Source: Selenomonas sp. (lineage in GTDB: Bacteria > Bacillota > Negativicutes > Selenomonadales > Selenomonadaceae). From it: a stretch of 64,000 bases of DNA. The notes below the pieces were generated by a model that was given only the letters and a program-made list of their open reading frames with translations, ran no database searches and had not been told where the DNA came from. The stretch is taken from assembly GCF_022771645.1 (NCBI RefSeq), contig NZ_JALFCU010000080.1, positions 26,495-90,494 of the forward strand, read 5' to 3'. Within the stretch, counting starts at the first letter, position 1; the number at the start of each line of letters is the position of its first letter. A program made the translations under genes and the position numbers. Positions 16,701-49,159 of this stretch are shown here, in pieces.

Positions 16701-16726
16701 AAAAAAGCCGCGCTTGCCAGCGCGGC
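16701..16726 (-). terminator. Rho-independent terminator after the radical-SAM gene
   Basis: Minus strand has GCCGCGCTggcaAGCGCGGC followed by TTTTTTGCG, 18 nt after the stop at 16744. Confidence 0.7.
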
Positions 16727-16743
16727 GGGATGCCTCCCATATG

Positions 16744-30407: not shown

Positions 30408-30444
30408 AAAAAAGAAGCCGTTGCACCCTGCGGGGAACGGCTTC
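30408..30444 (-). terminator. Rho-independent terminator ending the Ter biosynthetic operon
   Basis: Minus strand has GAAGCCGTT..AACGGCTTC followed by TTTTTTGTG. Confidence 0.7.
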
Positions 30445-30475
30445 TTTGCGTGTGCGGGACAAAACAGGCAACGGC

Positions 30476-31297
30476 TCACGCGCGCGCGATCGCGTCGAGC
30501 ACTCGTTCGAGCGTCCACTCGGCGAAGCGGGCGGCGCGGGCGTCCGGTTCGCGGAACGTCTCTGCACCGGGCTGTGCGAGGCCCGGCAGCGTGAAGGCGC
30601 GGCCGGCGGCGGCGAGGAGCGGCGCGTCCATGGCGCTGTCGCCGGCGGCGAGGACGAGCGTCGCGCCCGTGCGCGCGCGGAGGCGGGCGAGGGCGCTGCC
30701 CTTGTCGAGGCCGCGCGGCAGGACATAGAGCTTGCGGCCCGAAGCCGCGATGGGGAGCGCCGTCTCCGTCGCGACCTCGGCGGCGAGCGCCGCGCAGCGG
30801 TCGTCGTCTTCCGGGCGCAGGAAGAGGTACGCGTCATCGACCATGCGGCAGATGCGGTAGCGCGCGTCGTCCGCGTGCGCGGCGCAGAGGGCGAGGAGCT
30901 CGTCGTGCGCGGCGGCGAGGACGGGGCGCAGCGCGTCGTCCCACGCAGTATCGCGCACGAAGCTGCCGCTCCTGTCCGCACTCGCTGCACCGCCGCCCGA
31001 TGCGTTGCCGTCCGTCGGGCGCGTCAGGAGCACCGCGCCGTTCGTCGTGACGGCGAGGCGCGGCTGGCAGCCCTGCGGCCAGCGGATGCGCTCATACTGC
31101 GCGACGGAGCGCGTCGTGACGGGGACGAACGTCGCACGCGCTGCGACGATGCGCAGGAGCTCGATCGTGCGCGGGCTGAAAAATCCTTGTTCTTCGCCGT
31201 CGAGCCATTCGACGCAGACGTCGCCGGGCGCGGCGTGGCGGTGGGAGAAGAGCAGCGTGTTGTCGAGGTCGCTCGCGAAAAGGATGCGCTTTTGCAT
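30476..31297 (-). CDS. HAD-superfamily phosphatase (Ter-associated biosynthetic module)
   Basis: MQKRILFASDLDNTLLFS is the DxDxT motif, and the C-terminal LAAGDSAMDAPLL is the HAD motif IV region. Confidence 0.8.
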   Translation of the reverse strand: MQKRILFASDLDNTLLFSHRHAAPGDVCVEWLDGEEQGFFSPRTIELLRIVAARATFVPVTTRSVAQYERIRWPQGCQPRLAVTTNGAVLLTRPTDGNASGGGAASADRSGSFVRDTAWDDALRPVLAAAHDELLALCAAHADDARYRICRMVDDAYLFLRPEDDDRCAALAAEVATETALPIAASGRKLYVLPRGLDKGSALARLRARTGATLVLAAGDSAMDAPLLAAAGRAFTLPGLAQPGAETFREPDARAARFAEWTLERVLDAIARA

Positions 31298-31313
31298 GAA
31301 TCCTCCTCCCGCT

Positions 31314-32369
31314 TCAGGCGTCGGCGAGCGCGCGGATGATGCCGCATGCGCGGTAGTTCGTGAGCGGATAGGCCTCGACCGGCACGCCCTTTTCCTTTGC
31401 GAGCTGGTAGATGTGGCCGAGGTGCTCCATGTCGTCCATGCTGTGCACGAGGATTTTCCACGGCACGCGGCGCAGCAGCACGCGCGTCGCCTCGCCGATG
31501 CCGGGCTTCACGAGGTTGATGTCGCGCACGCCGAAGTGCGCGGCGATGCGGCGGACTTCGGCGAGGCCCGTGCCGCGCGGGCACGCCTCCTCGAGCGGCG
31601 GGAGCTCCGCCGGCAGCGCGGCCTCGATGGCGTCGAGGAACGCATACGTCATGTCGTGCGGCGCGAGCTCTTTGTAAAAGACCGCGCCATGGAAGTCACA
31701 GGGCCCGATGATGTCCCGCCGCAGGAACGTGCGCGAGAGGAGGCCGGAGACCGTGGAGTTCAGGCACGAGCTCGCGATGAGGAAATCTTCGTGCGTGCCG
31801 CAGATGCCGGCGACGCACGCGGGGTCGGAGAGCACGGCGAGCGCGGGGCTGACGCCGGGGTAGTCCTCCATCGCCTCATCGAGCTGGCGCGCGATTGCGC
31901 CCTTTCCCGTCCAGCCGTCGACGAACTGGATGTTCTCCGGCGCGTGACGCGCGAGGATGTAGCGCATGGCGACATGGTCGATGCCGACGCCGCGGATGAT
32001 GGAAATCGTGTAGTGCGGCACAAGGGCGTGATGGCGGCGCGCGAGCTCGTGCTTCAGCAGGATGCCGATGGGCGTGCCGGCGCGCGCGAGCGAGACGAGC
32101 ACGGCATTTTCGCCTTTCGCCTGCCAGATGTTTTCCGCCGCAACGGCGACGGCGCGCGCCGTGACGGCGGCGTAACGCGCGAGCGCGTCTTCGTAGGCCG
32201 CGAGGTACGCCGGGCTCGGCCGGTACTCGATGGGGAGCATCTCACAGTAGTGGCGGCCGCGCTGGATCTCGCGCTCGCGCGCCTCGGTGCTCATGGGCTC
32301 AACGAGCCCCGTGATGTCTTTGAGGAGGACGGTCACGTCCTCGGGGCGGTACGTTCCAAAGGGTTTCAT
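31314..32369 (-). CDS. StiP-family / PRTase_1-type phosphoribosyltransferase-like protein (Ter-associated)
   Basis: The N-terminus GTYRPEDVTVLLKDI...EAREREIQRGRHYCEMLPIEYRPSPAY resembles the StiP/PRTase_1 signature (SY.PeDV.FLLK..KE..IQsG.HYSEML). The gene is coupled to its neighbours by ATGA overlaps. Confidence 0.65.
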   Translation of the reverse strand: MKPFGTYRPEDVTVLLKDITGLVEPMSTEAREREIQRGRHYCEMLPIEYRPSPAYLAAYEDALARYAAVTARAVAVAAENIWQAKGENAVLVSLARAGTPIGILLKHELARRHHALVPHYTISIIRGVGIDHVAMRYILARHAPENIQFVDGWTGKGAIARQLDEAMEDYPGVSPALAVLSDPACVAGICGTHEDFLIASSCLNSTVSGLLSRTFLRRDIIGPCDFHGAVFYKELAPHDMTYAFLDAIEAALPAELPPLEEACPRGTGLAEVRRIAAHFGVRDINLVKPGIGEATRVLLRRVPWKILVHSMDDMEHLGHIYQLAKEKGVPVEAYPLTNYRACGIIRALADA

Positions 32370-33526
32370 GCGAGCACCTCCTGCTCTCCCGTGCGGATCC
32401 AGACGATGCGGCCGCAGTCATGCGCGGCGAGCGCGCCGCGCAGCGCGTCCTCGGCCGCGCGGGACGGCGCGGGCGCGTCCGTCACGACGACGACGAGGTC
32501 GTAGCGGTCGAGGGTGTAGACATACGTCGTGCGCGCGTCATCGTAAAAGCTCGGCAGCTGCCAGCCCTCGCGGATGGGGTAGCCGTCCGCCGTGCTGACG
32601 CCGATGGGGCTGCGCGTCGTCGCATGGCAGCGCACCTCATAGCCCGCCGCGTCCCACGCGCGCGCGATGAGGAGCGCCGGCAGCATGCATTCCTCCGTGC
32701 CGAGCACGAGCACGCGGCCGAACGGCGCTCCACGCTTCAGTATGGCGTGCAGCGCCTTCCATGCGAACGTGCGCCAACGCTGGATGTACGACGCGCCGAC
32801 GACGCCCGTGCGCGGGTCGAGCGGGATGGGCGCGGTCAGGCGCATCTCTTCGGTTGCCGCCGGCAGCGGCGGGGCGATCGCCGCAGGCGCGACGGTGTAC
32901 GCGGACACCTCCGCTTCGTAGTCGCGCTGCGGCAGGCGCACGAGATAGACGGGCGTGATGCCGAGCGCCGCCATCTTTGCCTCGTTTTCCGCGTCGAGGC
33001 GGTAAAAGATGGACGCGGCGACGAGCGTCTTCTCCGCGAGCTCCGGGAACTCTACGGAGAGCGCCTGCACCATGTTGCGGATGGTCTTGCCCGTCGAGAG
33101 CTCGTCGTCGAGGAAGACGACCGTCTGCGTCTCTGCGAGCATGCGGCGCAGAGACGCGCCGTCGAGCCGCTGCTCCGTCGCGTGGCTGTGCTCCTCGCGG
33201 AACTCGATCCAGTCCGCGACGCCCGCGACCGCTTCACGCGTCGTCGTCAGGCAGAGGCAATGGCCGCCGACGCCCTCCGTCGCCATGAGGCCGACGGCCG
33301 TTGCCGTCTCGGCGAACGCGACGATGAGGTGCGCGTCCGGGAACGCGGCGCGGATCTTTTCGCCGAGCGCGCGCATCAGGAGGAGCGCCTCCTTTGGCTG
33401 CGATGGCAGATGCTTCGCCTGCCGCCGGTTCACGAGCAGGTACGAGCGCTTCGCGTTGTGGTAGCGCCGCGCGAGGCAGAGGAGGTCTTCCGCGCGGTAT
33501 TCCGTGGTGGCTGTTTCTTCGTTCAT
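32366..33526 (-). CDS. Phosphoribosyltransferase (PRTase_2-like) with C-terminal TRSP-like domain (Ter-associated)
   Basis: The PRPP loop is VVFLDDELSTGKTIRNMV, upstream is IVAFAETATAVG, and the C-terminal half has VLVLGTEECMLPALLIA. Confidence 0.65.
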   Translation of the reverse strand: MNEETATTEYRAEDLLCLARRYHNAKRSYLLVNRRQAKHLPSQPKEALLLMRALGEKIRAAFPDAHLIVAFAETATAVGLMATEGVGGHCLCLTTTREAVAGVADWIEFREEHSHATEQRLDGASLRRMLAETQTVVFLDDELSTGKTIRNMVQALSVEFPELAEKTLVAASIFYRLDAENEAKMAALGITPVYLVRLPQRDYEAEVSAYTVAPAAIAPPLPAATEEMRLTAPIPLDPRTGVVGASYIQRWRTFAWKALHAILKRGAPFGRVLVLGTEECMLPALLIARAWDAAGYEVRCHATTRSPIGVSTADGYPIREGWQLPSFYDDARTTYVYTLDRYDLVVVVTDAPAPSRAAEDALRGALAAHDCGRIVWIRTGEQEVLA

Positions 33527-34548
33527 GCGTGAGGCCTCCCTTCGCCGAGGACGATCGGCGTCTCAATGTTCGCGACCGTGACGTCCGTTTCCTGCGGCAG
33601 CTGCCACGGCAGGCCGCGCCCGAGGAGCTGCGCGAGCGCGACGGCAGGCACGTTGACGCCGCTCGCGGCGCACGAGAGCTGCAGGCCGCCCGCCATGCGC
33701 GGATTGATCTCGAGGAGGTACGGCTTTCCCTTATGCATACGGAACTGCAGATTCGCCGGCACGCGCATCGCGAGGTGATGCAGGAGTTCCTTTGAAAGCG
33801 CGACAACCTCTGCGTCCCAGTGCAGCGTCGAATACCGCCCGCCCTTGTAACGCGGCAGCAGGATGTCGCCCCGCTCCGTCATGAGCGCGTCGACGCTGAT
33901 CTCCGGCCCCTCGAGGTACGGCATGACGAGCACGGGGACGGCGAAATCGTATGCGCCGAGGATGGCCTCGGCCGCCGCCCGCGTCGCCTTCGCGCCCGGC
34001 ATGCGATAGAGCGCGCCCGCCGCCGCGAGCGTGTCGTCGATGACGCGGAACGTCGTCGCGCCTTCGTCGACGGCGAGCTTGTAGCAGACGCGCCCGCCGT
34101 CCCCGGACAGCGCGTCGACGGCGGCACGGAACTCCGCAATCGTATGCGCCATGCGGTATGGCGGCACGAGCGCGCCGAGCCCCCACGCGCGCAGCAGCTC
34201 GTACGTCGCGCCCTTGTCGTCGAGCGCGCGCACGAGCGCGGCGTCCTCCGGCGCGAAGAGCTGCACGCCCATGGCTTCGAACGCATCGCGCGCCTCCACG
34301 ATGGCCGCGAGGCGGCGGCGCGGCACGAAGACGCTGACCGCGTGCGTGCGGCAGAACGCGAGCGCCCACGCCACATATTCCCCGTCATCCGCGAACTCCG
34401 GCTCGTCCTCCCAGACGTCGACGGCCTCGCGGTAGATCGCGCGCGGATTCGTCCCCGTGCCGAAAAAGCGCAGGTCGTCGCCCGCCGCCCGCATGAGGCG
34501 GATGAGGTGATACGCCGTGCTGAACCAATGATTGAACCAGATGTTCAT
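33523..34548 (-). CDS. ATP-grasp enzyme (Ter-associated)
   Basis: MNIWFNHWFSTAYHLIRLMR... with the C-terminal YLLEINPRMAGG typical of ATP-grasp. Start trimmed to the ATG at 34548 (ATGA overlap with the upstream stop). Confidence 0.75.
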   Translation of the reverse strand: MNIWFNHWFSTAYHLIRLMRAAGDDLRFFGTGTNPRAIYREAVDVWEDEPEFADDGEYVAWALAFCRTHAVSVFVPRRRLAAIVEARDAFEAMGVQLFAPEDAALVRALDDKGATYELLRAWGLGALVPPYRMAHTIAEFRAAVDALSGDGGRVCYKLAVDEGATTFRVIDDTLAAAGALYRMPGAKATRAAAEAILGAYDFAVPVLVMPYLEGPEISVDALMTERGDILLPRYKGGRYSTLHWDAEVVALSKELLHHLAMRVPANLQFRMHKGKPYLLEINPRMAGGLQLSCAASGVNVPAVALAQLLGRGLPWQLPQETDVTVANIETPIVLGEGRPHA

Positions 34549-35528
34549 GCGCGTCCCTCCCCGCAGATGCCATAGACGGCGGCGAGCGCCAGCGTACGCT
34601 CGGCCCAACGGCTGTGGCACGCCGCCTCGTTCATGCGATGGCCACCCGCGCTTTTCTCGACGCCGAGCGCGCCCGCGTCGAACTGCGCGAGGCGGCACGC
34701 GTCATCGTAGTCCTCGCGCGGGACGCGCAGGCTGGCCGCGATGAGCGGCAGCTGGCACGGATGGATGGCCGTCTTGCCGATGAAGCCGTGCAGGCGGTCG
34801 AGCGCGAGCTCGCGCCGGAGCCCCTCTTCCCATGCGGCGTCGCCCGCCGCGCCGAAGTAGTTCCACACCGGGCCCGAGACGACGTAGTCGACGGCGAAGA
34901 CGTTCAGGATGTCCATGAGGATGTCGCGCACGATGCCGACATCGTAGATCGTCGCCGTCGCCGGCCGGCGCAGGCCGTAGAGATTGGAAAAATCATTGCC
35001 GCCGACGCGGATGTTCAGCACGCAGTCCTGCACGGGCGCGAGCATCTCGTGGAGCTTGCACAGCACGGACGGGCGCGTGTCGCACGCGGCGATCATCATC
35101 GTCTCGAGCGTCGGCATGACGAGGATGCGCCGCCCGGCCGCGCGCTCCGCCTGCACGATGGCGAGGTAGTCCGCCGCGTTGCCGAGGTCGAACTTCGGCA
35201 GCACGAAGCCCGTGACGATGCCGCGCACGTCCGCGAACGCCTCCAGCACATGCGCGAGATGTTCCGGCGTCCGCACGCGCACGAAGAGCAGCGGCAGCGC
35301 CGTCCCCTGCGCCGCAAGTGCCTGCAGTTCGGCGAGGATGCCATGGAGCGACGCTTCCGCCGCCGCGAGCGCCGACGCGCGGATCGCGTCCTCGAGGCAG
35401 AACGCGATGGACGTCAGGCACGGGATGCTCCCGTCCCGGATCTTCGGCACGATATTTTTCTGGAACGCCGGCATGTAGAGCAGCCCGCCGACGCGGTACG
35501 GCAGGTCGTCTGCCATTGATGGTATCAT
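34545..35528 (-). CDS. HpcH/HpaI aldolase / citrate-lyase beta-like TIM-barrel enzyme (Ter-associated)
   Basis: GLLYMPAF...SIAFCLEDA...VRVRTPEH...GFVLPKF...ILVMPTLET...NIRVGGNDFS shows the CitE/HpcH-like pattern. Start taken at the ATG at 35528 (MIPSMADD), 4 nt after GAGGGGGA. Confidence 0.7.
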   Translation of the reverse strand: MIPSMADDLPYRVGGLLYMPAFQKNIVPKIRDGSIPCLTSIAFCLEDAIRASALAAAEASLHGILAELQALAAQGTALPLLFVRVRTPEHLAHVLEAFADVRGIVTGFVLPKFDLGNAADYLAIVQAERAAGRRILVMPTLETMMIAACDTRPSVLCKLHEMLAPVQDCVLNIRVGGNDFSNLYGLRRPATATIYDVGIVRDILMDILNVFAVDYVVSGPVWNYFGAAGDAAWEEGLRRELALDRLHGFIGKTAIHPCQLPLIAASLRVPREDYDDACRLAQFDAGALGVEKSAGGHRMNEAACHSRWAERTLALAAVYGICGEGRA

Positions 35529-35538
35529 AAAATCCCCC

Positions 35539-36807
35539 TCATCCTTCCACTTCGATGCCATAGCTCCCGCAGAGGCGCGCGAGGCCGGCGGCGTAGCCCG
35601 CGCCGACGAAATGCACTTTCCACGCGTCGTTCCTGCGGTAGATGTCGAGCGCGACGACGACCTTCTCGACCGTGAGGCCCGCGAGCGGGAACACAGCCTC
35701 CTGCCCTGCGCCCGTCACGCGCACAACCGGCGCGCGCACGGAGGAGAACGGCGGCGCGCCGTCCTCATCGTAAATGGCATAGCTGACGATGACGTGCGCG
35801 ACATCGGCAGGGACCTTCGACAGCGTGATCTGCACGAGGTCTGGGCTGCCCGGCTGCTCCGTGAGTGCGACGGCCTCGCCGTCGCGGTGGCCGAAGAAAA
35901 AGAGGTCGTCGTCGCTCCGCGCCCGGTTATCCGCACCGAGCGTGAACACGTACGCGTCGATGTCCATGCCGCCCGGGCGGCCGCCATCCTCATAGCGGAC
36001 GGCCAACACGTCGTCCTGCACGGGGACGCGCTGGCCGTGGACGGCGGTGAGGACGACAGAGCCACACGAGGAGGACTGAGAGGACGGGGCGCTTGCAGCC
36101 CTGCCATCCGAGGAACGTGATGCATTGCGATCCGGGCGAGGCGATGCGTCGCGGTTCTCTGGCGGCCGGCCATTGTTTCCCGGCAACGTATCGCAGCTGG
36201 CCGGCATCTGGTCGCAGCGGCGCGCTGCGCCTTTGACCGCACGGCCGCTGACGTAGATGCGACGCACGAGGCCGCCCGTCGTCAGCAGGAGGTCGCCGTA
36301 GAGCGTCGTGCCAGCGCGCATGCCGTCGATGGTCAGGCGGATGCCCGGATGCCCTGCTACAAGGTGTGCGGGCTCGGCGCGCACGCCGTCCATATGGCAC
36401 GCGAGCTCCGCATCCTCCGGCAGCGCGAGCGGCACGCAGGCGACGTTCGTCTCGTCCGGCGCGAAGTCGCCGAGCGCGGCGCCGCTCGGCAGATGCCAGT
36501 CCTCCGCGACACCCGGGACGCCCATGACGCCGCCATGTACCTCGACGTTCTCGAACGTGACGGCGTGGCCGCCGCCCGCGATGGCGACGTCCTGCACGGG
36601 GTCGCCGACGACCTCGACGCGCAGGTTGCGGATGACCGCACCGTCCGCCGCGAGGACGAGCGCCGGCCCCTTCGTCACCCAGAGCGTCGCGCCGTGCCCA
36701 TCGAACGTGCCGCCGTGACGCACCGTGACCGGCCCTTCATACTCGCCGGGCGCTGCCTCCGCCGGTCCTTTCGCCATCCGGTCGAGGATTTTCTGCAAGC
36801 TCTCCAT
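35539..36807 (-). CDS. Fusion protein: unknown roughly 230-aa N-terminal (beta-helix-like) domain + Ser/Pro/Arg-rich linker + C-terminal TerD domain
   Basis: The C-terminus DIDAYVFTLGADNRARSDDDLFFFGH...ITLSKVPADVAHVIVSYAIYD...DIYRRNDAWKVHFVGAGYAAGLARLCGSYG is a TerD fold. The N-terminus has short G/V-rich strands: ATLWVTKGPALVLAADGAVIRNLRVEVVGD..VAIAGGGHAVTFENVEVHGG. Start trimmed to the ATG at 36807. Confidence 0.7.
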   Translation of the reverse strand: MESLQKILDRMAKGPAEAAPGEYEGPVTVRHGGTFDGHGATLWVTKGPALVLAADGAVIRNLRVEVVGDPVQDVAIAGGGHAVTFENVEVHGGVMGVPGVAEDWHLPSGAALGDFAPDETNVACVPLALPEDAELACHMDGVRAEPAHLVAGHPGIRLTIDGMRAGTTLYGDLLLTTGGLVRRIYVSGRAVKGAARRCDQMPASCDTLPGNNGRPPENRDASPRPDRNASRSSDGRAASAPSSQSSSCGSVVLTAVHGQRVPVQDDVLAVRYEDGGRPGGMDIDAYVFTLGADNRARSDDDLFFFGHRDGEAVALTEQPGSPDLVQITLSKVPADVAHVIVSYAIYDEDGAPPFSSVRAPVVRVTGAGQEAVFPLAGLTVEKVVVALDIYRRNDAWKVHFVGAGYAAGLARLCGSYGIEVEG

Positions 36808-36832
36808 CCGTACTCCGTGCCTCCCGCAACTG

Positions 36833-36866
36833 AAAAAAGAGAAAGGGCAGCGCGCTGCCCTTTCTC
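36833..36866 (-). terminator. Rho-independent terminator ending the TerY-P/TerD operon
   Basis: Minus strand has GAGAAAGGGCAGCgcGCTGCCCTTTCTC followed by TTTTTTC. Confidence 0.75.
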
Positions 36867-36886
36867 CGCATACATCGAAAACCTTG

Positions 36887-37471
36887 TTACACGTTGACGC
36901 CATAGGCGCGGCAGAGGGCTGCGAGGCCGCCTTGGTAGCCGGCGCCGACCGCATTGAACTTCCACTCGCCGTTCCGGCGGTAGATCTCGCAGACGACGAG
37001 CGCCGTCTCGACGGAGAACTCCTCCATCAAGTCGAAGCGCAGCACCTCCGTGCCCTTCGTATCGTCCGCGCTCGCGATGCGCGCGACGCGCACATAGGCG
37101 TTCGAGACCTGGCCGAAGTTCTGCTTGCGCGCCTCGGCGTCGTAGATCGTGACCGTGATCGCAATCTTGTCGATGTCCGGCGGGACCTTGCTGAAGTCGA
37201 TGATGATGACCTCGTCATCGCCGTCGCCCTCGCCCGTCAGATTGTCGCCCGTGTGGTGGACGCTGCCGTCCGTGCTGTCGAGGTTGCCGTAGAAGATGAA
37301 GTCCTCATCCTTGCGCACCTTGCCGTTCGGGCCGAGCAGGAATGCCGACGCATCGAGGTCGAAATCCGCACCGCCGTCATACTGGTTGACATCCCAGCCG
37401 AGGCCGACGAGCGCCATCTTCATGCCCTTGTCGAGGCTGACGCGCTGGCCCTTGCTCAAATTGACTGCCAT
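36887..37471 (-). CDS. terD: TerD-family stress protein
   Basis: [25 protein letters not shown]...[12 protein letters not shown]...[13 protein letters not shown]...ITVTIYDA...[12 protein letters not shown]...[19 protein letters not shown]. Confidence 0.9.
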
Positions 37472-37493
37472 GAAATATCCTCCTATTCCGCTC

Positions 37494-38105
37494 TCAAGCG
37501 AAGCGTTTCACGATATCGTCGAGGCCGTCGTCCTGCGTCGCCTCGCCGATCGCGTTGAACTTCCATTCGCCGCCCCGGCGGTAAATCTCGCCGCAGATGA
37601 GCGCCGTCTTGCCATTGCACTGCGCATTCTCCGAAAGGTCGTAGCGGCAGTGCACTTGGTTCGTGTCGCTGTCGACGATGCGGATGTACGCGTTCTGGAT
37701 CTTGCCGAAATCCTGCTTACGCTTCTTCGCGTGATAGATGGTCACGACGAAGATGAGCTTGTCATACTCCGCCGGCACGCGGTCGAGGTCGACGAAGACC
37801 TGCTCGTCATCGCCGTCGCCCTCGCCCGTCAGGTTGTCGCCCGCGTGCTGCACGGCGCCGGACGCGTGCTTGAGGTTGCCGTAGTAGACGAGGTCGTCGA
37901 CCGTGCGGATGCGGCCGTCCTTGCAGAGCAGCACGGACGCGTCGCAATCGATGTCGTCGCCGCCCCCGCCGAAGATGGACGAGAGGAAGCCGCCCGACGA
38001 CGTCTTTTCCACCGGATCCCAGCCGAGGCCGACGAGGATGTGGCGGAGCGAGCCGCCGCCCTCCTTGCGGAGACTGACTTTCTGTCCCTTTTGCAGATTG
38101 ACCAT
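37494..38105 (-). CDS. TerD-family protein (divergent paralog with a Gly-rich insert)
   Basis: [24 protein letters not shown]...[38 protein letters not shown]...[10 protein letters not shown]. Confidence 0.85.
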
Positions 38106-38117
38106 ATGGTATCCTCC

Positions 38118-38801
38118 TTAGTTCGATGGCGGCATCAGCGAGCGGACCCAGCTCTCAAAAGCGTCCGGGTTGCGCGTCTGGATCAGCACGACGCCCGGCC
38201 CCTTGAAGCGGCAGACGAGCCCTTCGCCCGACGTGATGCTCGAGAACCAGCCGCTCGACGCCTTCTCGATCTTGTACTCCATATAATCGGGCCACGCGAC
38301 GAGGTGGCCGTTGTCGATGACGACTTCCTCACCGGCCGCGAGGTTGATCGGGTGGATGACGCCATAGCTGCTGACGAACGCCTTGCCGCGCCCGTTGAGC
38401 TTCACGAGGAAGAAGCCTTCCCCGGAAAAGAAGCCTTTCGAGAGGCCTTGCACATGCGTGTCGACCGCGATGCTCTCCTCCGCTGCGAGGAAGCCGCCCT
38501 GCTCGACGATGAGCCCGTACGAGCCGTCGAGGTCGACATCGAGGATGCCGCCCGGCAACGCGTGCGCGAACAGCACGTCGCCATCGCCGCGCGACGCGAC
38601 GAGGCGCTGCATGAAAAAACTCTCGCCGGACAGGAACTTCCGCGCGAGGCCGCCAAGCAGGCTGCCTTCACGTTTGCCCTCGACGTCGATCGTCGGCGAC
38701 ATCGCGATCATCGCGTCCGATTCCGCCTTGATCGCCTCGCCGCGATGCAGATGCATCGAGACGATGGGGAACGCCTCGGGGTAAAGGATCTTGTACTCCA
38801 T
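38118..38801 (-). CDS. AIM24/DUF124 (TIGR00266-like) family protein
   Basis: AESDAMIAMSP...GESFFMQRL...GGFLAAEESI...GEGFFLVKL.G.G.AFVSSYG...GHLVAW...GEGLVCRFKGPG.VLIQTRN matches the AIM24 pattern. Confidence 0.75.
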   Translation of the reverse strand: MEYKILYPEAFPIVSMHLHRGEAIKAESDAMIAMSPTIDVEGKREGSLLGGLARKFLSGESFFMQRLVASRGDGDVLFAHALPGGILDVDLDGSYGLIVEQGGFLAAEESIAVDTHVQGLSKGFFSGEGFFLVKLNGRGKAFVSSYGVIHPINLAAGEEVVIDNGHLVAWPDYMEYKIEKASSGWFSSITSGEGLVCRFKGPGVVLIQTRNPDAFESWVRSLMPPSN

Positions 38802-38802
38802 A

Positions 38803-39381: not shown

Positions 39382-39474
39382 GATGGAAATCCTCCCTTTT
39401 CAAAAATCAGAAAACGCTTCTATGCAGAACAGGCGGCAGAAATGCACACCTGTCGATGCCTTGAACACACAGGA

Positions 39475-40740: not shown

Positions 40741-40741
40741 A

Positions 40742-43381: not shown

Positions 43382-43422
43382 AGGCTGCTCCTCTCTTTTT
43401 CAAAAACTCTCCTATTCGATGC

Positions 43423-44916
43423 TCAGTCCATGGCCTCGAACACGACGCCGTCCGCGTCCTCCGTCGTGAGGAACGCGCGGCCGGGCTCGAGGCGCACGGC
43501 CTGCCCCGGCGGCACGAGCCGCCCGCCCGGCGAGCGCATGCCCGCGAGCGACCGGTTCACGAGATACCATGCGCCGCCCTGGTGCGACACGTAGGCCATC
43601 ATCGAGCGGTCCTGCACCTTCTCGTCCGGGAACACGCCCGCGTGGAAATGCCACGCGAAGAACGGCATGCCGTCGTAGACGTTGATGACCTGCCGCGTAA
43701 TCCACTGCCCGCGCCGCCCGTTCATCCGCTGGCGGATGCGCAGGTGCAGCACGTCGCGCCGGTCGATGCGCGTCCCGCAGAACGGGCAGACGGGCTCGCT
43801 GCCATACGGCAGCGGGAACCAATGCGCCGGGCAGGCGGGATTCGCGCACGGCTCGAGGATGTCCCAAGCGTGGACAAGCGCCTTTTCCCACTCCATGGCC
43901 GACGGCCGCTCGCTGGGGTTGTGCAGCCCGTCGCAAAACGCGCGCAAGAACAGCTGCTCGAGCTCCGGCCCGAGGTCGTGGATCGTGACGGCGAGGTCTT
44001 TCGGTCGGTTCGATGGGTCCTTCGGGTCCTCGATAAACGTCGCCTGCGGGCCGTACATGAGGAAGTCGTCTTCCTCCGGCGAGGCCGTGCTGTAGACTTT
44101 TGGCCCCTCGAGCGGATGACGGTGCAGCAGATATTGGTAGATGAGCACGGCCATGGCGAAGAGATCCGTGCGAATGCACGGCAGCGCGCGGCCGGGGTCG
44201 TCCATCGGGAGATTCATCGTCTCGAGGACCTCGGGCGCGATGTAGCCCTTCGTGCCCGCGACCTCCGGCGGGAACAACCCCGGCACGACGAGCGAATCGA
44301 TGTCGATGACGACGCAGCGGCCGCCTTTCGGGTCGATGAGCACGTTGTTCTCCGAGAGGTCGGAGTGCGACAGCCCCGCCTGGTGCATGCGGCGCACGGC
44401 GCGCGCCAGCAAAATGGCGATGGAGAGCATCGAGCGGAAATCGCCCTTCTCCTCGTCGCGCAGGTATTTGCTCACGCGTGGCGACGTGAACCAGCGGCTC
44501 TTCTTGTCCTTGCCCTTGAGGTCGAGCGCATCCACCTGCGACGCGTCCGCGTCAAAGAAGAACGCTTTCGGATACGTCGGGCAGACGATGCCGAACTCCG
44601 GCTGCGCGACGAGCGCGTACGGCCAGCAGTAAAGGTCGTCGAAATAGTTCGCCGTCGCCTCTGTGTTGCCGGCCGCGCCGCCCGCCGCCTCCGAGCGCGT
44701 CGGATTGTACGCACCGATGATCTTCTCGAGGCGCTTGTGGAGGTTCTGGTCTTGTGCGTCCTCCGGCTTGTTGAAAAACTGGATGACGTAGGACTTGTCC
44801 GGCGCGAAATACGTGTGCTTCATGCCGCCGCGCGGCGGGTTGTCCGTCACGATGTACGGCAGCACCGTGCCGTCCGTGAGGACGGCCTGCGCCTCTTTTT
44901 TCTTCTTTTTGCTCAT
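43423..44916 (-). CDS. Ser/Thr protein kinase of the TerY-P triad, with C-terminal Zn-ribbon and FHA-like region
   Basis: The catalytic loop is GLSHSDLSENNVLID and the activation segment is IDIDSL...GTKGYIAPEV. The Zn-ribbon is CANPACPAH...CPFCGTRI. The start overlaps the PP2C stop (ATGA). Confidence 0.8.
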   Translation of the reverse strand: MSKKKKKEAQAVLTDGTVLPYIVTDNPPRGGMKHTYFAPDKSYVIQFFNKPEDAQDQNLHKRLEKIIGAYNPTRSEAAGGAAGNTEATANYFDDLYCWPYALVAQPEFGIVCPTYPKAFFFDADASQVDALDLKGKDKKSRWFTSPRVSKYLRDEEKGDFRSMLSIAILLARAVRRMHQAGLSHSDLSENNVLIDPKGGRCVVIDIDSLVVPGLFPPEVAGTKGYIAPEVLETMNLPMDDPGRALPCIRTDLFAMAVLIYQYLLHRHPLEGPKVYSTASPEEDDFLMYGPQATFIEDPKDPSNRPKDLAVTIHDLGPELEQLFLRAFCDGLHNPSERPSAMEWEKALVHAWDILEPCANPACPAHWFPLPYGSEPVCPFCGTRIDRRDVLHLRIRQRMNGRRGQWITRQVINVYDGMPFFAWHFHAGVFPDEKVQDRSMMAYVSHQGGAWYLVNRSLAGMRSPGGRLVPPGQAVRLEPGRAFLTTEDADGVVFEAMD

Positions 44917-46613
44917 GCCTCCGCCTCCCGCACGGCCACGACGAGCGTGCGGTCATCGGCCGAGGAACGCACCGTGTAGTTGTCGAGCCACTTCGCGATG
45001 CGCTGCTCGATGGGATCGCCCGGCGCGATGTCCGCGTCTGCTGACAACATGGCGAGCTTCCGCTGGTCCGTCCAATAGGGCGCGAGCGCATCCTCCGTCG
45101 GCGCGAACCGCCGCGTGTAATGGAGTGCAACCTCCACGGACTTGTCGTTGACCCAGGGGAACGCGATCGGCTTGATGTTGCGCAGGCTGCGCCGCTCCTC
45201 GAGCGCATCCTCGAGCGTACCGGGCGTTGCGCGGAGCACGCCTTTCGGCGGCAGGAGGACGCCGTTCGCCAGCAGGTCGCAATAGAGGCGACGCATTTCT
45301 TTTTCATTCGGAAAATAATCGTCCGCCACGCCGTCCGTCATCGCGAAGATGTGCGTGACGTGTCCGCGGTAGAGCATCGTGCGCTTCTGGAGCTCCGCCG
45401 TCTCCGTCACGCGGGACGAGACGAGGAATTCCGTCTCGCCGACGTACTCGCCGCTGTCCGGCTTGCCGAGCAGGCGCTGCGCCTTGTCAAATGGCGCCGC
45501 TGCGTCGATGGCGGCGATCATGCCGTCGCCGACCTGACACGACAGCACGAGCGTGTCGCCTGTCGCGCCTGCCGGCAGGGCGATCGTGACGAGGAGCGTC
45601 GAGGCGAAGTCCGCGAGCACGGGCTTGCGGCCGAGCACGTCCGCGTAGCGCGGCTGCTCCGCACGTTGCTCGTAAGCCGTCTCAACGGCCTCGCGCGCCT
45701 CCTGCATCGACTGTTGGAGCGCCAGGACGAGCGGCTGCACGGCCGCCTGGAACGCGGTGCCGTCCGTCGCCTCGTCAAACGGGGCATAGAACGTTTCCAC
45801 CGCGTCACAGGGTGCTGTGAGGTCCGTCAGCTTTTCCTTCAGGTACTTCACGGCCTGCTCGGAGGCGGCGTACGCGCCGATGCGCGAGAAATGCTTCGAG
45901 CCCGCGCCGTCGGCGACGGCGATGAGCTGGATGCGGTCGACGGCGTCGATGGCGAACCAGTCATCGGAGTTCGTGCCTTCGTGCTTGTGCTTCTTGCCGC
46001 GCACGCGCGCGCCGTACATCCCACCGGCCGGCGTATTCCGGTGCATGGCGTACGTTTCCGGCTTGCGGTCCGGCTCGACCGACTCGTCGGGGATATCCTT
46101 GTACTGCCAAAGCATCGTCGTGTGGCGGAGCACGTCATCATCCGAGAGAGGCTGCGGTGCCGGCTCAGGCGCAGACGCTTCTGCCTGCGATGCGGGAGAT
46201 TCTGCGGGGACAGCAGCCGTCGCCTGATCTGCCACCGGTTTTGCGGGGGCGACAGCGTCCGCCTGTGCCTCCACTGGTTTTATCGGGGCGGCAGCCGTTT
46301 CCTGCGCCTCCGCTGGTTTTGCAGAGGTGGCAGCCGTTTCCTGCGCCTCCGCTGCTTTTTCGGGGGCAACAGGCGTTTCCTGCACATCCGCCGGTTTTGC
46401 GGGGGTGGCAGCCGTTTCCTGCGCCGTCACCGGGTTCGACGGGATGACGGCCGGTTCTTGCACGTCCGGCACGATGATAAATGACCGCGATTTGTACAGC
46501 GTCACGTCCGGCAGGATGACGGCGCGCACGTCCGCATGACGCTGCCGCGCGTCATTCATGATGACTTTCGTCGTTCGGATGGGAATCTGGTATCCCTGCT
46601 GATCCTGTTCCAT
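44913..46613 (-). CDS. PP2C-family protein phosphatase of the TerY-P triad, with an N-terminal 13-aa-periodic Pro/Ala/Glu repeat
   Basis: GTNSDDWFAIDAV...IAVADGAGS...FAMTDGVADDY shows PP2C metal-binding Asp motifs. RBS GAGAGGAGGGG lies 6 nt upstream. Confidence 0.8.
   Translation of the reverse strand: MEQDQQGYQIPIRTTKVIMNDARQRHADVRAVILPDVTLYKSRSFIIVPDVQEPAVIPSNPVTAQETAATPAKPADVQETPVAPEKAAEAQETAATSAKPAEAQETAAAPIKPVEAQADAVAPAKPVADQATAAVPAESPASQAEASAPEPAPQPLSDDDVLRHTTMLWQYKDIPDESVEPDRKPETYAMHRNTPAGGMYGARVRGKKHKHEGTNSDDWFAIDAVDRIQLIAVADGAGSKHFSRIGAYAASEQAVKYLKEKLTDLTAPCDAVETFYAPFDEATDGTAFQAAVQPLVLALQQSMQEAREAVETAYEQRAEQPRYADVLGRKPVLADFASTLLVTIALPAGATGDTLVLSCQVGDGMIAAIDAAAPFDKAQRLLGKPDSGEYVGETEFLVSSRVTETAELQKRTMLYRGHVTHIFAMTDGVADDYFPNEKEMRRLYCDLLANGVLLPPKGVLRATPGTLEDALEERRSLRNIKPIAFPWVNDKSVEVALHYTRRFAPTEDALAPYWTDQRKLAMLSADADIAPGDPIEQRIAKWLDNYTVRSSADDRTLVVAVREAEA
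46226..46432 (-). repeat. In-frame 39-bp tandem repeat (about 5 units) in the PP2C gene
   Basis: Units resemble gctggttttgcagaggtggcagccgtttcctgcgcctcc and encode ETAA(T/A)xAKPxEAQ. Confidence 0.65.
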
Positions 46614-46645
46614 GCAGCGCCCCTCCTCTCGTCATGCGTTTGCTG

Positions 46646-47293
46646 TCAGGGAACGACCGTGAAGCCCTGCGGCGGCGGCGGGAGCTCGATGTTGCTGCCC
46701 GGCTTCGCGTCGAGGCTCTTCGACGACATTTTGATCGAGCCGGAGACCCAGGCAAAGAATTTCGCGAGGTCGCCCGACGACAGGCTGTTCATCATGAGCA
46801 CGTTGTCCGTGAGGCGCTTCAGGCACGTCGTGTCCGCGCCCGCGCCCGCTGCGCAGGCGATAATGTTCGCGGCCTTCAACGTCTTGATGCTCTCGGCCTG
46901 GCGATCGAATTCTTCCGTGTCCGTCGGCATACCGTCCGTCAGGATGAAGACGAGCGGACGCCAATCGCCCTTCTGCTCCGGCGTATTCTTGCGCACTTCG
47001 CGGTCGATGCACTCACGCAGCACAGCGAGCGCGCCGCCGAGCGACGTCGCGCCGCCCGCTTCGAGCTGCGGCTCTTTGAACAGCATGAGCTCTGTGAGCT
47101 GCGTCGTCTGTTTCGCCTGGCTCGCGAACGTGATGACGGACAGGTAGGCCGTCTCAAGCGCCTGCGGGTCGCCGCGCAGTTCCGACAGCAGCGCCTTCAC
47201 GCCCTGGCGGACAGCCTCGATCGGCTCTCCCATCATCGAGCCCGAGCAATCGAGCAGCAAATAGACCGGCAAGCGGCGTACATAATCTCCCAT
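46646..47293 (-). CDS. terY: TerY-like von Willebrand factor A (vWA) domain protein
   Basis: RRLPVYLLLDCSGSMMGEPIEAV is the MIDAS DxSxS motif, followed by ...VITFAS...PLVFILTDGMPTD. Start trimmed to the ATG at 47293, 7 nt after AGGAGGG. Confidence 0.85.
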   Translation of the reverse strand: MGDYVRRLPVYLLLDCSGSMMGEPIEAVRQGVKALLSELRGDPQALETAYLSVITFASQAKQTTQLTELMLFKEPQLEAGGATSLGGALAVLRECIDREVRKNTPEQKGDWRPLVFILTDGMPTDTEEFDRQAESIKTLKAANIIACAAGAGADTTCLKRLTDNVLMMNSLSSGDLAKFFAWVSGSIKMSSKSLDAKPGSNIELPPPPQGFTVVP

Positions 47294-47394
47294 GAGAAAT
47301 CCCTCCTGAAATACTGGCAAACGACGCACTCCCGCCCGATCGTTCCGTTCGAAACGAACTGCGCGGAAACGCGACTTTTGTTCACGATATTTTT

Positions 47395-47423
47395 ATTATA
47401 ACGAATTTTGTTTTGATTGTAAA
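47395..47423 (-). promoter_or_regulatory. Sigma-70-like promoter of the TerY-P/Ca-ATPase/TerD operon
   Basis: Minus strand reads TTTACA (47418-47423), 17 nt, TATAAT (47395-47400), within an AT-rich spacer. The 5' UTR is about 100 nt. Confidence 0.55.
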
Positions 47424-47515
47424 CCGCAGAGGCTCTCATTCTGTCCGATCTCTCTAAATCATATATAACATTTTACGAGATATTCCTCCGATGTAAAAAA
47501 GTTGCTCCCCCACGA

Positions 47516-47562
47516 ATAAAAAGCCGCCCGTCCGTGCAATTTTTTTCGCACGGGCGGGCGGC
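47516..47562 (-). terminator. Rho-independent terminator after the TerC/membrane-protein unit
   Basis: Minus strand has a 15-bp stem GCCGCCCGCCCGTGC..GCACGGACGGGCGGC followed by TTTTTATTCG. Confidence 0.75.
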
Positions 47563-47568
47563 TGTGGC

Positions 47569-48180
47569 TCACCGGTATTCGAGATTGCGGTTCGCGTTCC
47601 TCACCTCTTCGCTGACAGGCAGCGACGCTTCGTAGCGGCGGATGATGACGGTCGTCGTCAGGACGCCCGCGAGCAGCACGATGGCCGCCAGCAGGATGAC
47701 GCGGCCGGCGTTGTCATCGCTGTCGCCGTCACCGAGGACGCCGCCGAGGCCGTCCTTGACGGTGGCGAGCGCCGGGCCGAAGCTCTGGACGGCGTTGTAC
47801 GTGTTGTACGCCGTCGCGAACGTGTTCCAGCCCGCGACGCCGATGTTCATGAGCGATTTCTCGCGCGCGACGTTGATCCACGACTGGATCGTGATGACGA
47901 TGGCCGAGCCGATGGCCGGGATGATGATCATGAGGTACATGAGGCTCATGAGCACACCGAGCATCGCCGGCGGCAGATACCCCGCCGAAACGGCGATATA
48001 GCTGACGAGGAACGCATAGACGTATGTGAAGCCGACGGCCGACTGGATGGCGCCGGCCCAGACGACGAGGCGGATCCAGCCGCCGAGCGCCTTCGACTCG
48101 GCCCAGACGCGGCCGACGTTCCTGGCGTTCAGGAAACTGACGACGAGGTTGAAAATGAGGACGAGCAGCAACATGCCCAT
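47569..48180 (-). CDS. Integral membrane protein of unknown function (about 5 TM), co-transcribed with terC
   Basis: MGMLLLVLIFNLVVSFLNARNVG... is hydrophobic throughout, with an acidic loop GDGDSDDNAG. Confidence 0.55.
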   Translation of the reverse strand: MGMLLLVLIFNLVVSFLNARNVGRVWAESKALGGWIRLVVWAGAIQSAVGFTYVYAFLVSYIAVSAGYLPPAMLGVLMSLMYLMIIIPAIGSAIVITIQSWINVAREKSLMNIGVAGWNTFATAYNTYNAVQSFGPALATVKDGLGGVLGDGDSDDNAGRVILLAAIVLLAGVLTTTVIIRRYEASLPVSEEVRNANRNLEYR

Positions 48181-48204
48181 AAAAATCAAATCCTTTCTTT
48201 CTAT

Positions 48205-48891
48205 TTACGCTACGCTCGCGCTTGCTTGGCGACGAGCTTTGAAATGGCCGACAACGCAGACGAGGAGCGCGAGCGCGGCGGGCAGGACGTAGCCGCCCGC
48301 ACTGCCGAACACGGCGAAGATGTCCGCGAGGTGCGCACCGACAGCCTTGTCCGCCAGCAGCATCTTGCCCGCCGTCCAGCCGATGACGGCCGCGCCAGCG
48401 TACATGAGCACTGGGAAGCGGTCCATGACCTTGCCGAGCAGGCTGCTGCCCGCGACGACGATGGGGATGCTGATGAGGATGCCGGCCGCCGCGAGCAGGA
48501 AATGTCCCTGCGCCGCGCCCGCGATCGACAGCACGTTGTCGAGGCTCATCGCGACGTCCGCGACGAGGATCGTCTTGACGGCGCCGCCGAGCGTCTGCGC
48601 CTCCGCGACGGGACCGCCGCCCTTCTTGTGCGACGGGTCGAGCAGCTTCGCGGCGATCGGCAGCAGGATGAGTCCGCCGAGCGCCTGCAGGCACGGGACC
48701 TGCAGCAGCTCGACCGCGACGAACATCAGCGCGATGCGGACGGCGACCGCGCCGCCCGTCCCGATGAGCACGGCTTTTTTCCGCGCCGCCTCCGGCAGCG
48801 CGTTCGCCGCCATCGCGATGACGACGGCGTTGTCGCCGGCGAGCGCGAGGTCCATGACGACGATCGTGCCGAGCGCCAAAAAGAATTCCAT
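48205..48891 (-). CDS. terC: TerC-family integral membrane protein
   Basis: MEFFLALGTIVVMDLALAGDNAVVIAMAA...ILVADVAMSLDNVLSIAGAA contains the two TerC DN motifs. An alternative TTG start at 48906 has better SD spacing (GGGAG, 8 nt). Confidence 0.85.
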   Translation of the reverse strand: MEFFLALGTIVVMDLALAGDNAVVIAMAANALPEAARKKAVLIGTGGAVAVRIALMFVAVELLQVPCLQALGGLILLPIAAKLLDPSHKKGGGPVAEAQTLGGAVKTILVADVAMSLDNVLSIAGAAQGHFLLAAAGILISIPIVVAGSSLLGKVMDRFPVLMYAGAAVIGWTAGKMLLADKAVGAHLADIFAVFGSAGGYVLPAALALLVCVVGHFKARRQASASVA

Positions 48892-48977
48892 CGAAAAAGT
48901 TTCCAAGATACATGCTCCCTTTCTAAAAAACACACCGCCGCAAGCGCACGCGCGCTGCGGACATGGGAAGCAGATAC

Positions 48978-49125
48978 CAAAAAAGACTTTCACATGGTAT
49001 CTGTTTCCAGGTATCATGCGAAAGTCTCACCCATTGCGATGTTGCAACGCCCCTGCCAACCCGCGACGCGGGCAGTGATTGTTGACAGGAACCTTTGAGG
49101 TTACTCCCCTTCGCTCTTTGCTATG
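48978..49125 (-). promoter_or_regulatory. yybP-ykoY (Mn2+) riboswitch: aptamer about 49018-49120 plus terminator expression platform
   Basis: Minus strand reads GCGAAGGGGAGUAAC...UUGCAACAU..GGUGAGACUUUCGC, matching the conserved GGGGAGUA, UUGxxACAU and GAGAC(C)UUU blocks. The 3' P1 strand is shared with a hairpin GACTTTCgCATGaTACCTG..CAGaTAcCATGtGAAAGTC plus TTTTTT. It lies upstream of a TerC gene, a classic target. Confidence 0.75.
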
Positions 49126-49130
49126 GTTTG

Positions 49131-49159
49131 AGTATAGCAAGAGCGGAGCGACCTGTCAA
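49131..49159 (-). promoter_or_regulatory. Strong sigma-70-like promoter driving the riboswitch/terC unit
   Basis: Minus strand reads TTGACA (49154-49159), 17 nt, TATACT (49131-49136). Confidence 0.65.

Follow-up and report, generated by a model that had tools for sequence, protein, structure and literature searches.

Introduction

The terZABCDEF/terWXY loci of the IncHI2 plasmid R478 and of Klebsiella pK2044 are associated with resistance to tellurite, phages and colicins (PMC8115787, PMC12054061), and TerC adds to tellurite and zinc resistance in Klebsiella (PMC12054061). In the 2012 model of Ter systems (Anantharaman, Iyer & Aravind, Mol Biosyst 8:3142), as quoted in PMC11994780, the associated enzymes build a pyrimidine-derived ribonucleoside. 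Genes of this kind are common on virulence plasmids, where they affect tellurite, phage, colicin and gut-fitness phenotypes, and their biochemical role has been open for decades. Here, a Ter locus is described from positions 30408-49159 of a 64,000-nucleotide stretch of contig NZ_JALFCU010000080.1 of a Selenomonas sp.; this whole stretch is referred to as the window, and all coordinates are those of the window unless another locus is named. A reading made from the sequence alone (the original prediction) had taken the region for an 18.7-kb Ter supercluster of three transcription units. On the evidence given below, it very probably consists of a stand-alone metal-homeostasis operon (~49159-47516) beside one mobile Ter operon of ~17 kb (47423-30408), in which the roles of a cation pump, the TerD proteins and the enzymes are predicted ones.

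The locus was compared with 80 genome loci that were recruited via one TerD paralogue, the double TerD, and that each extend over +/-10 kb. Among species-representative genomes, the best double-TerD matches belong to an uncultured rumen Veillonellaceae genome (L002), Selenomonas sputigena (L005) and Centipeda periodontii (L008). L002 shares 73-96% protein identity with the window over the cluster, and a near-identical strain is available as a public assembly (L146). The window itself carries lpxI, lpxA and lpxC at 6132-9761, so that lipid A is made by the organism. Because of these genes, and because the best-matching loci are from Veillonellaceae, Selenomonas and Centipeda, the nearest relatives being Selenomonadaceae, the host had been correctly described as a diderm Firmicute.

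A conserved Ter block and a separate terC operon

Over the cluster, G+C content is ~63-69% and long overlapping open reading frames (ORFs) occur on both strands. A filter on third-position G+C leaves a single unbroken run of 17 minus-strand genes (30476-48906). The long plus-strand ORFs were discarded as high-GC artefacts, with third-position G+C and Pfam both backing the minus-strand set alone. Gene calls in the near-identical strain L146 concur with this set and fix the starts of terC (228 aa), a membrane protein gene (203 aa) and terY (215 aa). In the Pfam/NCBIfam hidden Markov model scan that had been proposed as a check, all 17 gene calls and family assignments of the original prediction held. 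The Ter block is far beyond chance, since a single block contains six TerD domains together with members of five Ter-specific Pfam families, and its synteny is kept in at least 12 genomes.

In the direction of transcription, the block begins with a TerY-like vWA gene (46646-47293; PF00092, E 3.5e-11) with the metal-ion-dependent adhesion site motif DCSGS, a PP2C phosphatase gene of the PP2C_2 family (44913-46613; PF13672, E 1.6e-32) and a Ser/Thr kinase gene (43423-44916; PF00069). These are followed by a P-type ATPase gene of the PMCA type (P-IIB; 40742-43381) and by a gene for a double TerD (39475-40740; two stretches of PF02342). A TerD gene (38803-39381; PF02342, E 2e-88), an AIM24/TIGR00266 protein gene (38118-38801; PF01987, E 4e-70; TIGR00266) and two further TerD genes (37494-38105, with a Gly-rich insert, PF02342, E 7e-68; 36887-37471, PF02342, E 2e-79) come next. 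The 422-aa product of the following gene (35539-36807) comprises an N-domain (aa 1-205), a disordered linker and a TerD domain, which Pfam places in the last 170 residues.

The remaining genes encode a Ter-type TIM-barrel lyase of the C-C_Bond_Lyase family (HpcH/CitE-like; 34545-35561; PF15617, E 2e-95), an ATPgrasp_Ter protein (33523-34548; PF15632, E 4e-33), which starts at ATG 34548 with a 4-nt overlap with the lyase stop codon, a PRTase_2 + TRSP protein (32366-33526; PF15609, E 2e-38; PF12500, E 8e-19), a StiP (formerly PRTase_1) + PELOTA_1 protein (31314-32369; PF11202, E 3e-101; PF15608, E 4e-32) and a HAD-IIB-like phosphatase (30476-31297). The phosphatase scores are weak: PF05116/PF08282 give 25 bits in Pfam and TIGR01484 gives 36 bits, below its cutoff of 41.8; its DxDxT motif reads DLDNT. 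Together these five genes form a complete module that matches the composition given in PMC11994780. The link drawn by the original prediction to the 2012 Ter model is upheld as far as that model is summarised in PMC11994780 and PMC8115787.

Gene order is kept in the sequence terY, PP2C, kinase, pump, double TerD, TerDs/AIM24, TerD fusion, lyase, (ATP-grasp), PRTase-TRSP, StiP and HAD. This terY-to-HAD order is found in L002, in S. sputigena ATCC 33150 (L005) and in C. periodontii DSM 2778 (L008), as well as in the partly covered Selenomonas metagenome-assembled genomes L003, L004, L006 and L007. It also occurs in the monoderm Oscillibacter/Clostridia loci L009, L010, L058, L067 and L074; in this group of loci, no match to ATP-grasp was found. 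With an identical order in two cultured strains, the locus loses the special standing of a compact test version of the pathway that it had been given. The terY, kinase and pump proteins of the window share 62-77% identity with those of Oscillibacter, equal to their identities with Selenomonas. The block is flanked by Rnf/GGDEF genes and metA in the window, whereas in S. sputigena the region upstream of terY carries prfA/prmC and, from a reading of its ORFs, is housekeeping-like (for example, a release factor gene); in L002 it is a different coding region, without the GGDEF gene. Because the Oscillibacter identities equal those with Selenomonas and the chromosomal neighbours differ between genomes, the comparison points to horizontal transfer of the whole Ter block, as a unit, between a diderm and a monoderm class.

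The predicted signals of transcription, all on the minus strand, are consistent with a long operon. The promoter-like site P1 (49131-49159; TTGACA-17-TATACT, TG-extended, an 11/12 match) precedes the terC leader and is kept in L002/L082, and the promoter-like site P2 (47395-47423; TTTACA-17-TATAAT, an 11/12 match) would serve the terY-to-HAD genes, with an alternative promoter-like site from the consensus scan at 47470-47497. By sequence reading, the terC operon ends at a putative terminator T1 (47516-47562; a 14-bp GC stem and UUUUUAUU) and the cluster at T3 (30408-30447; a 12-bp stem and a U-run). A candidate internal terminator or attenuator, T2 (36828-36867; a 13-bp stem and U6), which was recovered by the scan as well as by reading, lies ~20 nt before the start codon of the TerD fusion. 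The consensus scan gives no promoter-like site ahead of the TerD fusion, where the original prediction had placed the start of its third unit, and there is no room for one, since the U-tract of T2 ends ~20 nt before the start codon. At the same position, the related Negativicute loci L002-L008 have a hairpin of other sequence with a U-tract, and the Oscillibacter loci a GC hairpin without one. Because no promoter appears ahead of the TerD fusion and the T2 hairpin is positionally conserved in relatives, the terY-to-HAD segment looks like one long operon with an internal attenuating terminator. Two promoters and an internal terminator or attenuator therefore describe the region better than the three transcription units proposed at first.

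Upstream of the block, a short TerC of the YjbE subfamily is encoded at 48205-48891/48906 (minus strand; start TTG 48906 or ATG 48891; PF03741, E 3e-44), with 204 bits against a cutoff of 135 in TIGR03717 (R_switched_YjbE). Its leader is probably a yybP-ykoY-type Mn2+ riboswitch. The candidate aptamer (49018-49114, minus strand) has a P1 helix GCGAAGG/CUUUCGC, an L1 loop GGGGAGUAAC, a helix CCUGUCAA/UUGGCAGG with an inner hairpin, a UUGC/GCAA hairpin and an L3 loop GUGAGAC. The features that mark yybP-ykoY leaders, L1 (GGGGAGUA) and L3 (GAGAC) loops closed by P1, are present, and the motifs GGGGAGTAAC and GTGAGAC are common to this leader and to that of E. coli alx, which is a yybP-ykoY riboswitch (PMC10197570). 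In an alignment of five homologues, 95.8% of the cells of helix CCUGUCAA/UUGGCAGG pair, as opposed to 35-45% when the partners are slid, and two compensatory pairs are seen. The putative expression platform (48979-49027, minus strand) is an intrinsic terminator, AGACUUUCGCAUG...CAUGUGAAAGUCU followed by U6, with a minimum-free-energy fold z-score of -3.85. Because the 5′ arm of this terminator shares sequence with the 3′ strand of helix P1 in the aptamer, the layout is that of a metal-ON transcriptional switch. Sequence reading adds a second terminator-like hairpin with U6 in the terC leader (48925-48960, minus strand). A strict motif scan of 59 metagenomic terC loci recovered the riboswitch in the five closest only.

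A multi-pass membrane protein (47569-48180, minus strand), for which no Pfam, NCBIfam or PADLOC match was found, is co-operonic with terC. Leader, terC and membrane protein gene occur together in the metagenomic loci L082-L085. Only in L082, which matches L002, does terY lie next to them; in L083-L085, terC and the membrane protein gene form a two-gene operon without terY. The membrane protein directly follows the riboswitch-controlled terC in these four lineages and shows 77-85% identity, compared with 61-88% for TerC; judged by these ranges, it is better conserved than TerC. The terC unit was not found upstream of terY in any other locus examined outside the lineage of the window and L002. 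By its gene neighbourhoods, this unit is an independent metal-homeostasis operon, found beside the Ter block in no lineage but that of the window. Since it is conserved alone and adjoins terY only there, the supercluster is in part a juxtaposition: the genes of the second and third predicted units do form a conserved Ter block, but the first unit is a separate operon.

A candidate small RNA of ~140 nt (49292-49432, plus strand) is divergent from the terC leader. It is near-invariant in the window, L002/L082, L083/L084, L100 and L146, although TerC of L083 is only 74% identical. The candidate comprises two stem-loops, both C-rich in the loop (CUAUCCCACU, UUCCAUCCCAUC), and a long AU-rich single-stranded stretch, and its 17-bp terminator shows four compensatory pairs. 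In L083/L100, this terminator carries a U tail on the plus strand but not on the minus strand. A -10-like TATATT/TATACT is present upstream of the candidate. Rfam gives no family for it; its terminator alone gives a weak match to 'Thr_leader'.

The P-type ATPase as a neighbour of TerD

The P-type ATPase scores 611 bits against the TIGR01517 equivalog model, above the cutoff of 507, and stays below the cutoffs of the SERCA, PMR1, Mg2+ and H+ models. It has all Pfam P-type domains and carries the PEGL and WVNLVMD transport-site motifs. The pump is the sole integral membrane protein of the conserved terY-to-HAD block, and its gene is closely packed with its neighbours, with 1 nt between its stop codon and the start of the double TerD gene and 41 nt between kinase and pump. 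The original prediction had singled out a Ca2+ pump embedded at this locus. A PMCA-type pump is indeed located between the signalling triad and the TerD genes, but the arrangement is not specific to the locus: a pump homologue lies within 500 bp or less of a same-strand TerD gene in 47/80 loci. This adjacency occurs in three gene orders, with the pump gene ahead of the double TerD, between TerD3 and the PRTase, or between TerD3 and the double TerD, and it is kept over a range of 39-95% in pump identity.

A second cluster type, seen in L017 (6544-9968 of that locus) and in other Lachnospiraceae/Oscillospiraceae, has the order TerD, double TerD, TerD, pump, PRTase-TRSP, StiP and HAD, with the lyase on the opposite strand. 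ORFs of 755 aa and 384 aa precede its TerD genes; from size and position only, it may be guessed that they are YceG- and TelA-like.

Every ORF in the 80 genome loci was searched with a TerC profile derived from 58 homologues. TerC was found in 8/80 loci, seven of them without the pump, and L002 is the only pump locus with TerC; in S. sputigena, C. periodontii, Oscillibacter and the other pump loci, the profile gave no TerC near terY. With an adjacent pump, TerC is present in one locus and absent from 46, and without an adjacent pump it is present in seven and absent from 26. TerC and the pump are near-exclusive on these counts (Fisher p = 0.007 for 80 loci, kinship ignored), and the pump may take the membrane place of TerC in this block. 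In the open-access literature, in which the 2012 Ter paper is represented by the papers that cite it, no article tying TerD to a P-type ATPase was found; a 2026 Jug-phage paper reports both TerD and P-type ATPase genes and treats them separately.

The ion carried may be Mn2+ as well as Ca2+, because export of Mn2+ or Mn2+/Ca2+ is known for related P-type ATPases that are controlled by yybP-ykoY elements (PMC10197570).

TerD paralogues and the TerD fusion

The six TerD domains (PF02342) are distributed over five proteins, with 77-295 bits, all above the gathering score. In the alignment, the acidic Ca2+ loop is intact in three of the six, namely the three single-domain proteins, and degenerate in the other three (the two halves of the double TerD and the TerD fusion). 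This loop, GDN(L/R)TG(E/A)GDGDDE, we take to be a putative Ca2+ site from what is known of the Klebsiella TerD structure 2KXT. The mix of intact and degenerate loops is in line with the published view that TerD paralogues include both metal-binding and non-binding forms.

The structural model of the TerD fusion has a mean predicted local distance difference test score (pLDDT) of 88.5 over the whole chain, and its N-domain (aa 1-205; 36193-36807, minus strand) is predicted to be all-beta. With the whole model as query, Foldseek gives strong matches only to TerD (3ibz, 2kxt). An Ig/PapD-like (HYDIN) assignment of the N-domain was considered and not adopted, the Foldseek matches being weak. No Pfam, NCBIfam or PDB sequence match was obtained for aa 1-205. 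Searched exhaustively with phmmer, a set of 1.84 billion representatives yielded 480 proteins with the N-domain, 338 of them at E<=1e-10. These proteins are 196-1014 aa long and carry the domain at the N-terminus, internally or at the C-terminus. In ten homologues that were submitted to Pfam, it is fused to kinase, WD40, Sel1, fn3, ankyrin, TIR and vWA (twice) domains, and to TerD in reverse order. Because its position varies and its partners include kinase, WD40, TIR, vWA, TerD and others, the N-domain is, on this pattern of fusions, a mobile domain that belongs to proteins of the signalling and conflict type. The claim of a novel domain on TerD stands insofar as no Pfam model covers it, but with 480 representatives and diverse fusions it is not peculiar to this locus. 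A description of the N-domain was not found, and it may have a name in the specialist literature.

The signalling triad

The vWA, PP2C_2 and Pkinase genes are consecutive. The kinase retains the HSD...N, DID and APE motifs, and its residues C357, C362, C377 and C380, which form a CxxxxC...CxxC zinc ribbon, are invariant in 42 homologues. An AlphaFold model of the kinase (pLDDT 91.6) shows a confident beta-rich domain after the zinc ribbon (aa 385-497); Foldseek with the whole model as query returned kinase matches only, and none for this domain. The Ter-type TerY-P triad is defined by a C-terminal zinc ribbon on the kinase, whereas triads tested in phage defence carry an oligonucleotide/oligosaccharide-binding (OB) fold there (PMC11090510). 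By its kinase tail, the triad of the window is of the zinc-ribbon Ter type.

With the models of PADLOC 2.0.0, no match to the vWA or PP2C protein was obtained even at E<=10, the kinase matched generic kinase models only (MkoA, PD-T4-6), and no model matched any TerD, AIM24 or the pump. The original prediction had pointed to the anti-phage activity reported for such a triad by Gao et al. (2020). Because of the PADLOC negatives and of the zinc ribbon in the OB-fold position of the kinase, that result does not transfer to this locus and serves as a lead, not as evidence of membership.

The N-terminal part of the PP2C protein (46237-46468, minus strand) contains a 39-nt tandem repeat (13 aa, ~4.8 copies; a 78-nt period is also seen), which encodes an Ala/Pro/Glu/Thr-rich linker ahead of the phosphatase domain.

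Surroundings of the block in the window

The cluster was considered as a foreign or defence island, and this was rejected, as its G+C content resembles the rest of the window and its flanks are housekeeping. A segment of lower G+C content (48-54%) at 1-6061, which is 26 kb from the Ter block, encodes LicD, an AAA-ATPase_like + PDDEXK_9 protein and a pair of DUF4411 and M78 (ImmA/IrrE-like) proteins; the segment resembles a small island of the mobile or defence type. Beside the lpx genes, a 1912-aa ORF (10938-16676, minus strand) lies between ORFs of 365 aa and 302 aa (9828-17652). These three ORFs have no Pfam match at E<=1e-4, and the 1912-aa ORF could encode a Negativicutes adhesin or a protein of outer-membrane biogenesis. 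At 19007-20797 (minus strand), an unusual fusion joins a Fe-only-hydrogenase-like domain with 4Fe-4S clusters to a GGDEF diguanylate cyclase domain. A protein with Halogen_Hydrol (XpaC-like) and TM2 domains is encoded at 60171-61310 (minus strand); no TelA is seen here. XpaC-like proteins neighbour TelA-type genes in Bacillus.

Proposed mechanism and alternative explanations

In the terC operon, metal binding to the Mn2+ leader behind a sigma-70-type promoter would switch on transcription of the short TerC exporter. In the Ter operon, envelope, metal or phage stress would change cytosolic Ca2+ (possibly Mn2+), which the motif-bearing TerD proteins would bind and read out, and which the pump, in the membrane role of TerC, would set or restore. 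The vWA/PP2C/kinase phospho-switch and the TerD complex may together gate the five metabolite-producing enzymes, which are predicted to make a ribonucleoside-like metabolite. The internal terminator T2 would hold enzyme transcripts below TerD transcripts, and the mobile beta domain fused to TerD may be sensor- or adaptor-like.

Several observations weigh against this reading and against the two-operon layout on which it builds. The promoter and terminator consensus matches are not in excess of those in shuffled sequence (4 vs 2.4 and 15 vs 13.7 over 19.6 kb scanned); what makes the sites named above credible is their location in the small number of gaps between genes. The covariation in the terC leader comes from five closely related sequences, and its pair count is reached by 62/500 shuffles. 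Rfam gave no riboswitch match at the gathering score or at E<=10, whether for the whole window, 3.5 kb or 321 nt, and the E. coli alx control (L001 3373-3510) was likewise unmatched. Since alx is a published member of the family, the Rfam negative is uninformative for this leader, and the conclusion that there is no riboswitch was rejected. The Mn2+ riboswitch of the original prediction is supported by motifs, fold and the TIGR03717 family of the downstream gene, if not by Rfam. The exclusivity of TerC and pump carries no correction for phylogeny and is drawn from loci that were recruited by one TerD paralogue and span +/-10 kb only. Finally, the sequence does not tell the ion specificity of the pump, whose yybP-ykoY-controlled relatives export Mn2+ or Mn2+/Ca2+.

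An alternative that can be entertained as a real, if tentative, possibility is that the locus serves metal or oxyanion homeostasis (tellurite, Mn2+, Ca2+), with TerD proteins as buffers, the pump and TerC as exporters and the enzymes as makers of a chelating or redox-protective molecule. The tight linkage of a PMCA-type pump with Ca2+-motif TerD proteins in 47 loci agrees with it, as do the Mn-riboswitch-like leader and YjbE-type TerC that adjoin the block, the contribution of TerC to tellurite and zinc resistance in Klebsiella (PMC12054061) and the export of Mn2+/Ca2+ by related riboswitch-controlled P-type ATPases (PMC10197570). However, a signalling triad, six TerD domains and five nucleotide-type enzymes exceed the needs of simple efflux, the metal motif is lost in half of the TerD domains, and the terC operon is unlinked to the block outside the window's lineage.

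A system that is mainly anti-phage is rather unlikely; in it, infection would be sensed by the triad, the module would be the source of a toxic or chain-terminating nucleoside, and TerD, pump and AIM24 would have accessory roles. Classical ter operons do inhibit phage, and deletion of terC in Klebsiella lowers phage resistance (PMC12054061); TerY-P-like triads act as stand-alone defence systems and also accompany CoCoNuT restriction systems (PMC11090510). The N-domain of the TerD fusion occurs elsewhere on TIR, vWA, WD40, Ank and kinase proteins typical of conflict systems, and the block appears to have spread horizontally between classes. These points are set against the lack of any PADLOC model for the vWA, PP2C, TerD, AIM24 and pump proteins, the zinc ribbon of the kinase where tested defence triads have an OB fold, flanks that are housekeeping instead of a defence island, and a distance of 26 kb to the nearest defence-like genes (DUF4411/M78, PDDEXK). 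It is very improbable that the pump gene is a passenger, functionally unconnected to Ter, in a supercluster that has kept its gene order by inertia since a single transfer. Related Clostridia/Negativicutes supply many of the 47 loci, and these may go back to one ancestral arrangement; the terC operon shows that unrelated operons can adjoin the block, yet pump-TerD adjacency survives three gene orders and 39-95% pump identity, the pump is near-exclusive with TerC, and the gaps are short (1 nt between pump and double TerD, 41 nt between kinase and pump).

The two-operon reading, with a mobile Ter operon and a separate metal-homeostasis operon, leaves room for a more specific and distinctly speculative proposal, doubtful as a whole: that across a large set of Clostridia and Negativicutes a PMCA-type Ca2+(/Mn2+) pump replaced TerC in the Ter system and, jointly, that the beta domain couples the TerD/Ca2+ signal to the metabolite enzymes. 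If it were true, the membrane component would, throughout Ter systems, serve at its core to export a divalent cation, this cation would be sensed in the cytosol by the TerD proteins, and the question of TerC and TerD would become a concrete Ca2+-signalling hypothesis. The nucleoside-like product and the role of TerD, which the original prediction had called unresolved, are so described in papers of 2021-2025 (PMC12054061, PMC8115787, PMC11994780). The 80-locus comparison offers as handles a Ca2+-type pump as a conserved Ter partner and a 17-kb operon that is unchanged in cultured oral Selenomonadaceae. The conserved candidate small RNA and the unmodelled domain common to TIR and vWA proteins may also be of interest.

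Comparison with described systems

The terC leader resembles the yybP-ykoY leaders of E. coli alx and B. subtilis ykoY (PMC10197570) in its GGGGAGUA and GUGAGAC loops, in a P1 helix closed by flanking strands, in the TerC-family exporter gene downstream (the 'R_switched' NCBIfam set) and in the P1-overlapping terminator of an ON switch. Unlike them, it has a tandem second terminator-like hairpin and an extra membrane protein gene in the operon. The pump resembles PMCA-type/LMCA1-like bacterial Ca2+ ATPases, with TIGR01517 above cutoff, the P-type domains and the PEGL/NLVMD motifs. In contrast to the riboswitch-controlled pumps S. pneumoniae MgtA and L. lactis YoaB (cited in PMC10197570), it has no riboswitch of its own and sits inside the Ter operon, directly upstream of the double-TerD gene. 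The anti-phage TerY-P triad (Gao et al., 2020), as far as it is described in PMC11090510, shares the adjacent vWA, PP2C and Ser/Thr kinase genes; the kinase of the window ends in a zinc ribbon and a beta domain, whereas an OB fold is reported for that of the defence triads.

Among 17 cluster proteins, Pfam gave no TerB or TelA domain, and the sole TerC is of the short YjbE type. The classical terZABCDEF combination, TerB and a long TerC together with TerD proteins, is absent from the cluster, where the short TerC belongs to a separate operon. Because TerB, TelA and a long TerC are not among the cluster proteins, the locus does not hold the whole pathway, as had been proposed. Like the R478 and pK2044 loci (PMC8115787, PMC12054061), it has TerD paralogues beside a putative biosynthetic cluster with terY-like vWA genes. 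Those loci consist of two parts on opposite strands and have TerB, a long TerC, TerA/Z/E/F and TerW/X (PMC8115787), whereas the locus of the window lies on one strand without TerB or a long TerC, has a cation pump, and belongs to a Negativicute chromosome, not to an enterobacterial plasmid.

The Ter systems of the 2012 model, in the form in which later papers summarise it, come closer. Compared with these summaries, the block of the window lacks TerB, TelA/YceH and YceG, has a PMCA-type pump instead of a TerC inside the block, contains an extra TerD fused to a beta domain, and lies on one strand in what looks like one operon with an internal terminator. It shares with the summarised systems the metal-binding and non-binding TerD proteins, the TerY-vWA/PP2C/kinase triad and AIM24, and also the five-gene module of TRSP-PRTase, PELOTA-PRTase, ATP-grasp, TIM-barrel lyase and HAD, detected here with Pfam families that were built for that system. 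The locus is therefore a largely ordinary instance of an already-described Ter cluster type and not a new kind of system.

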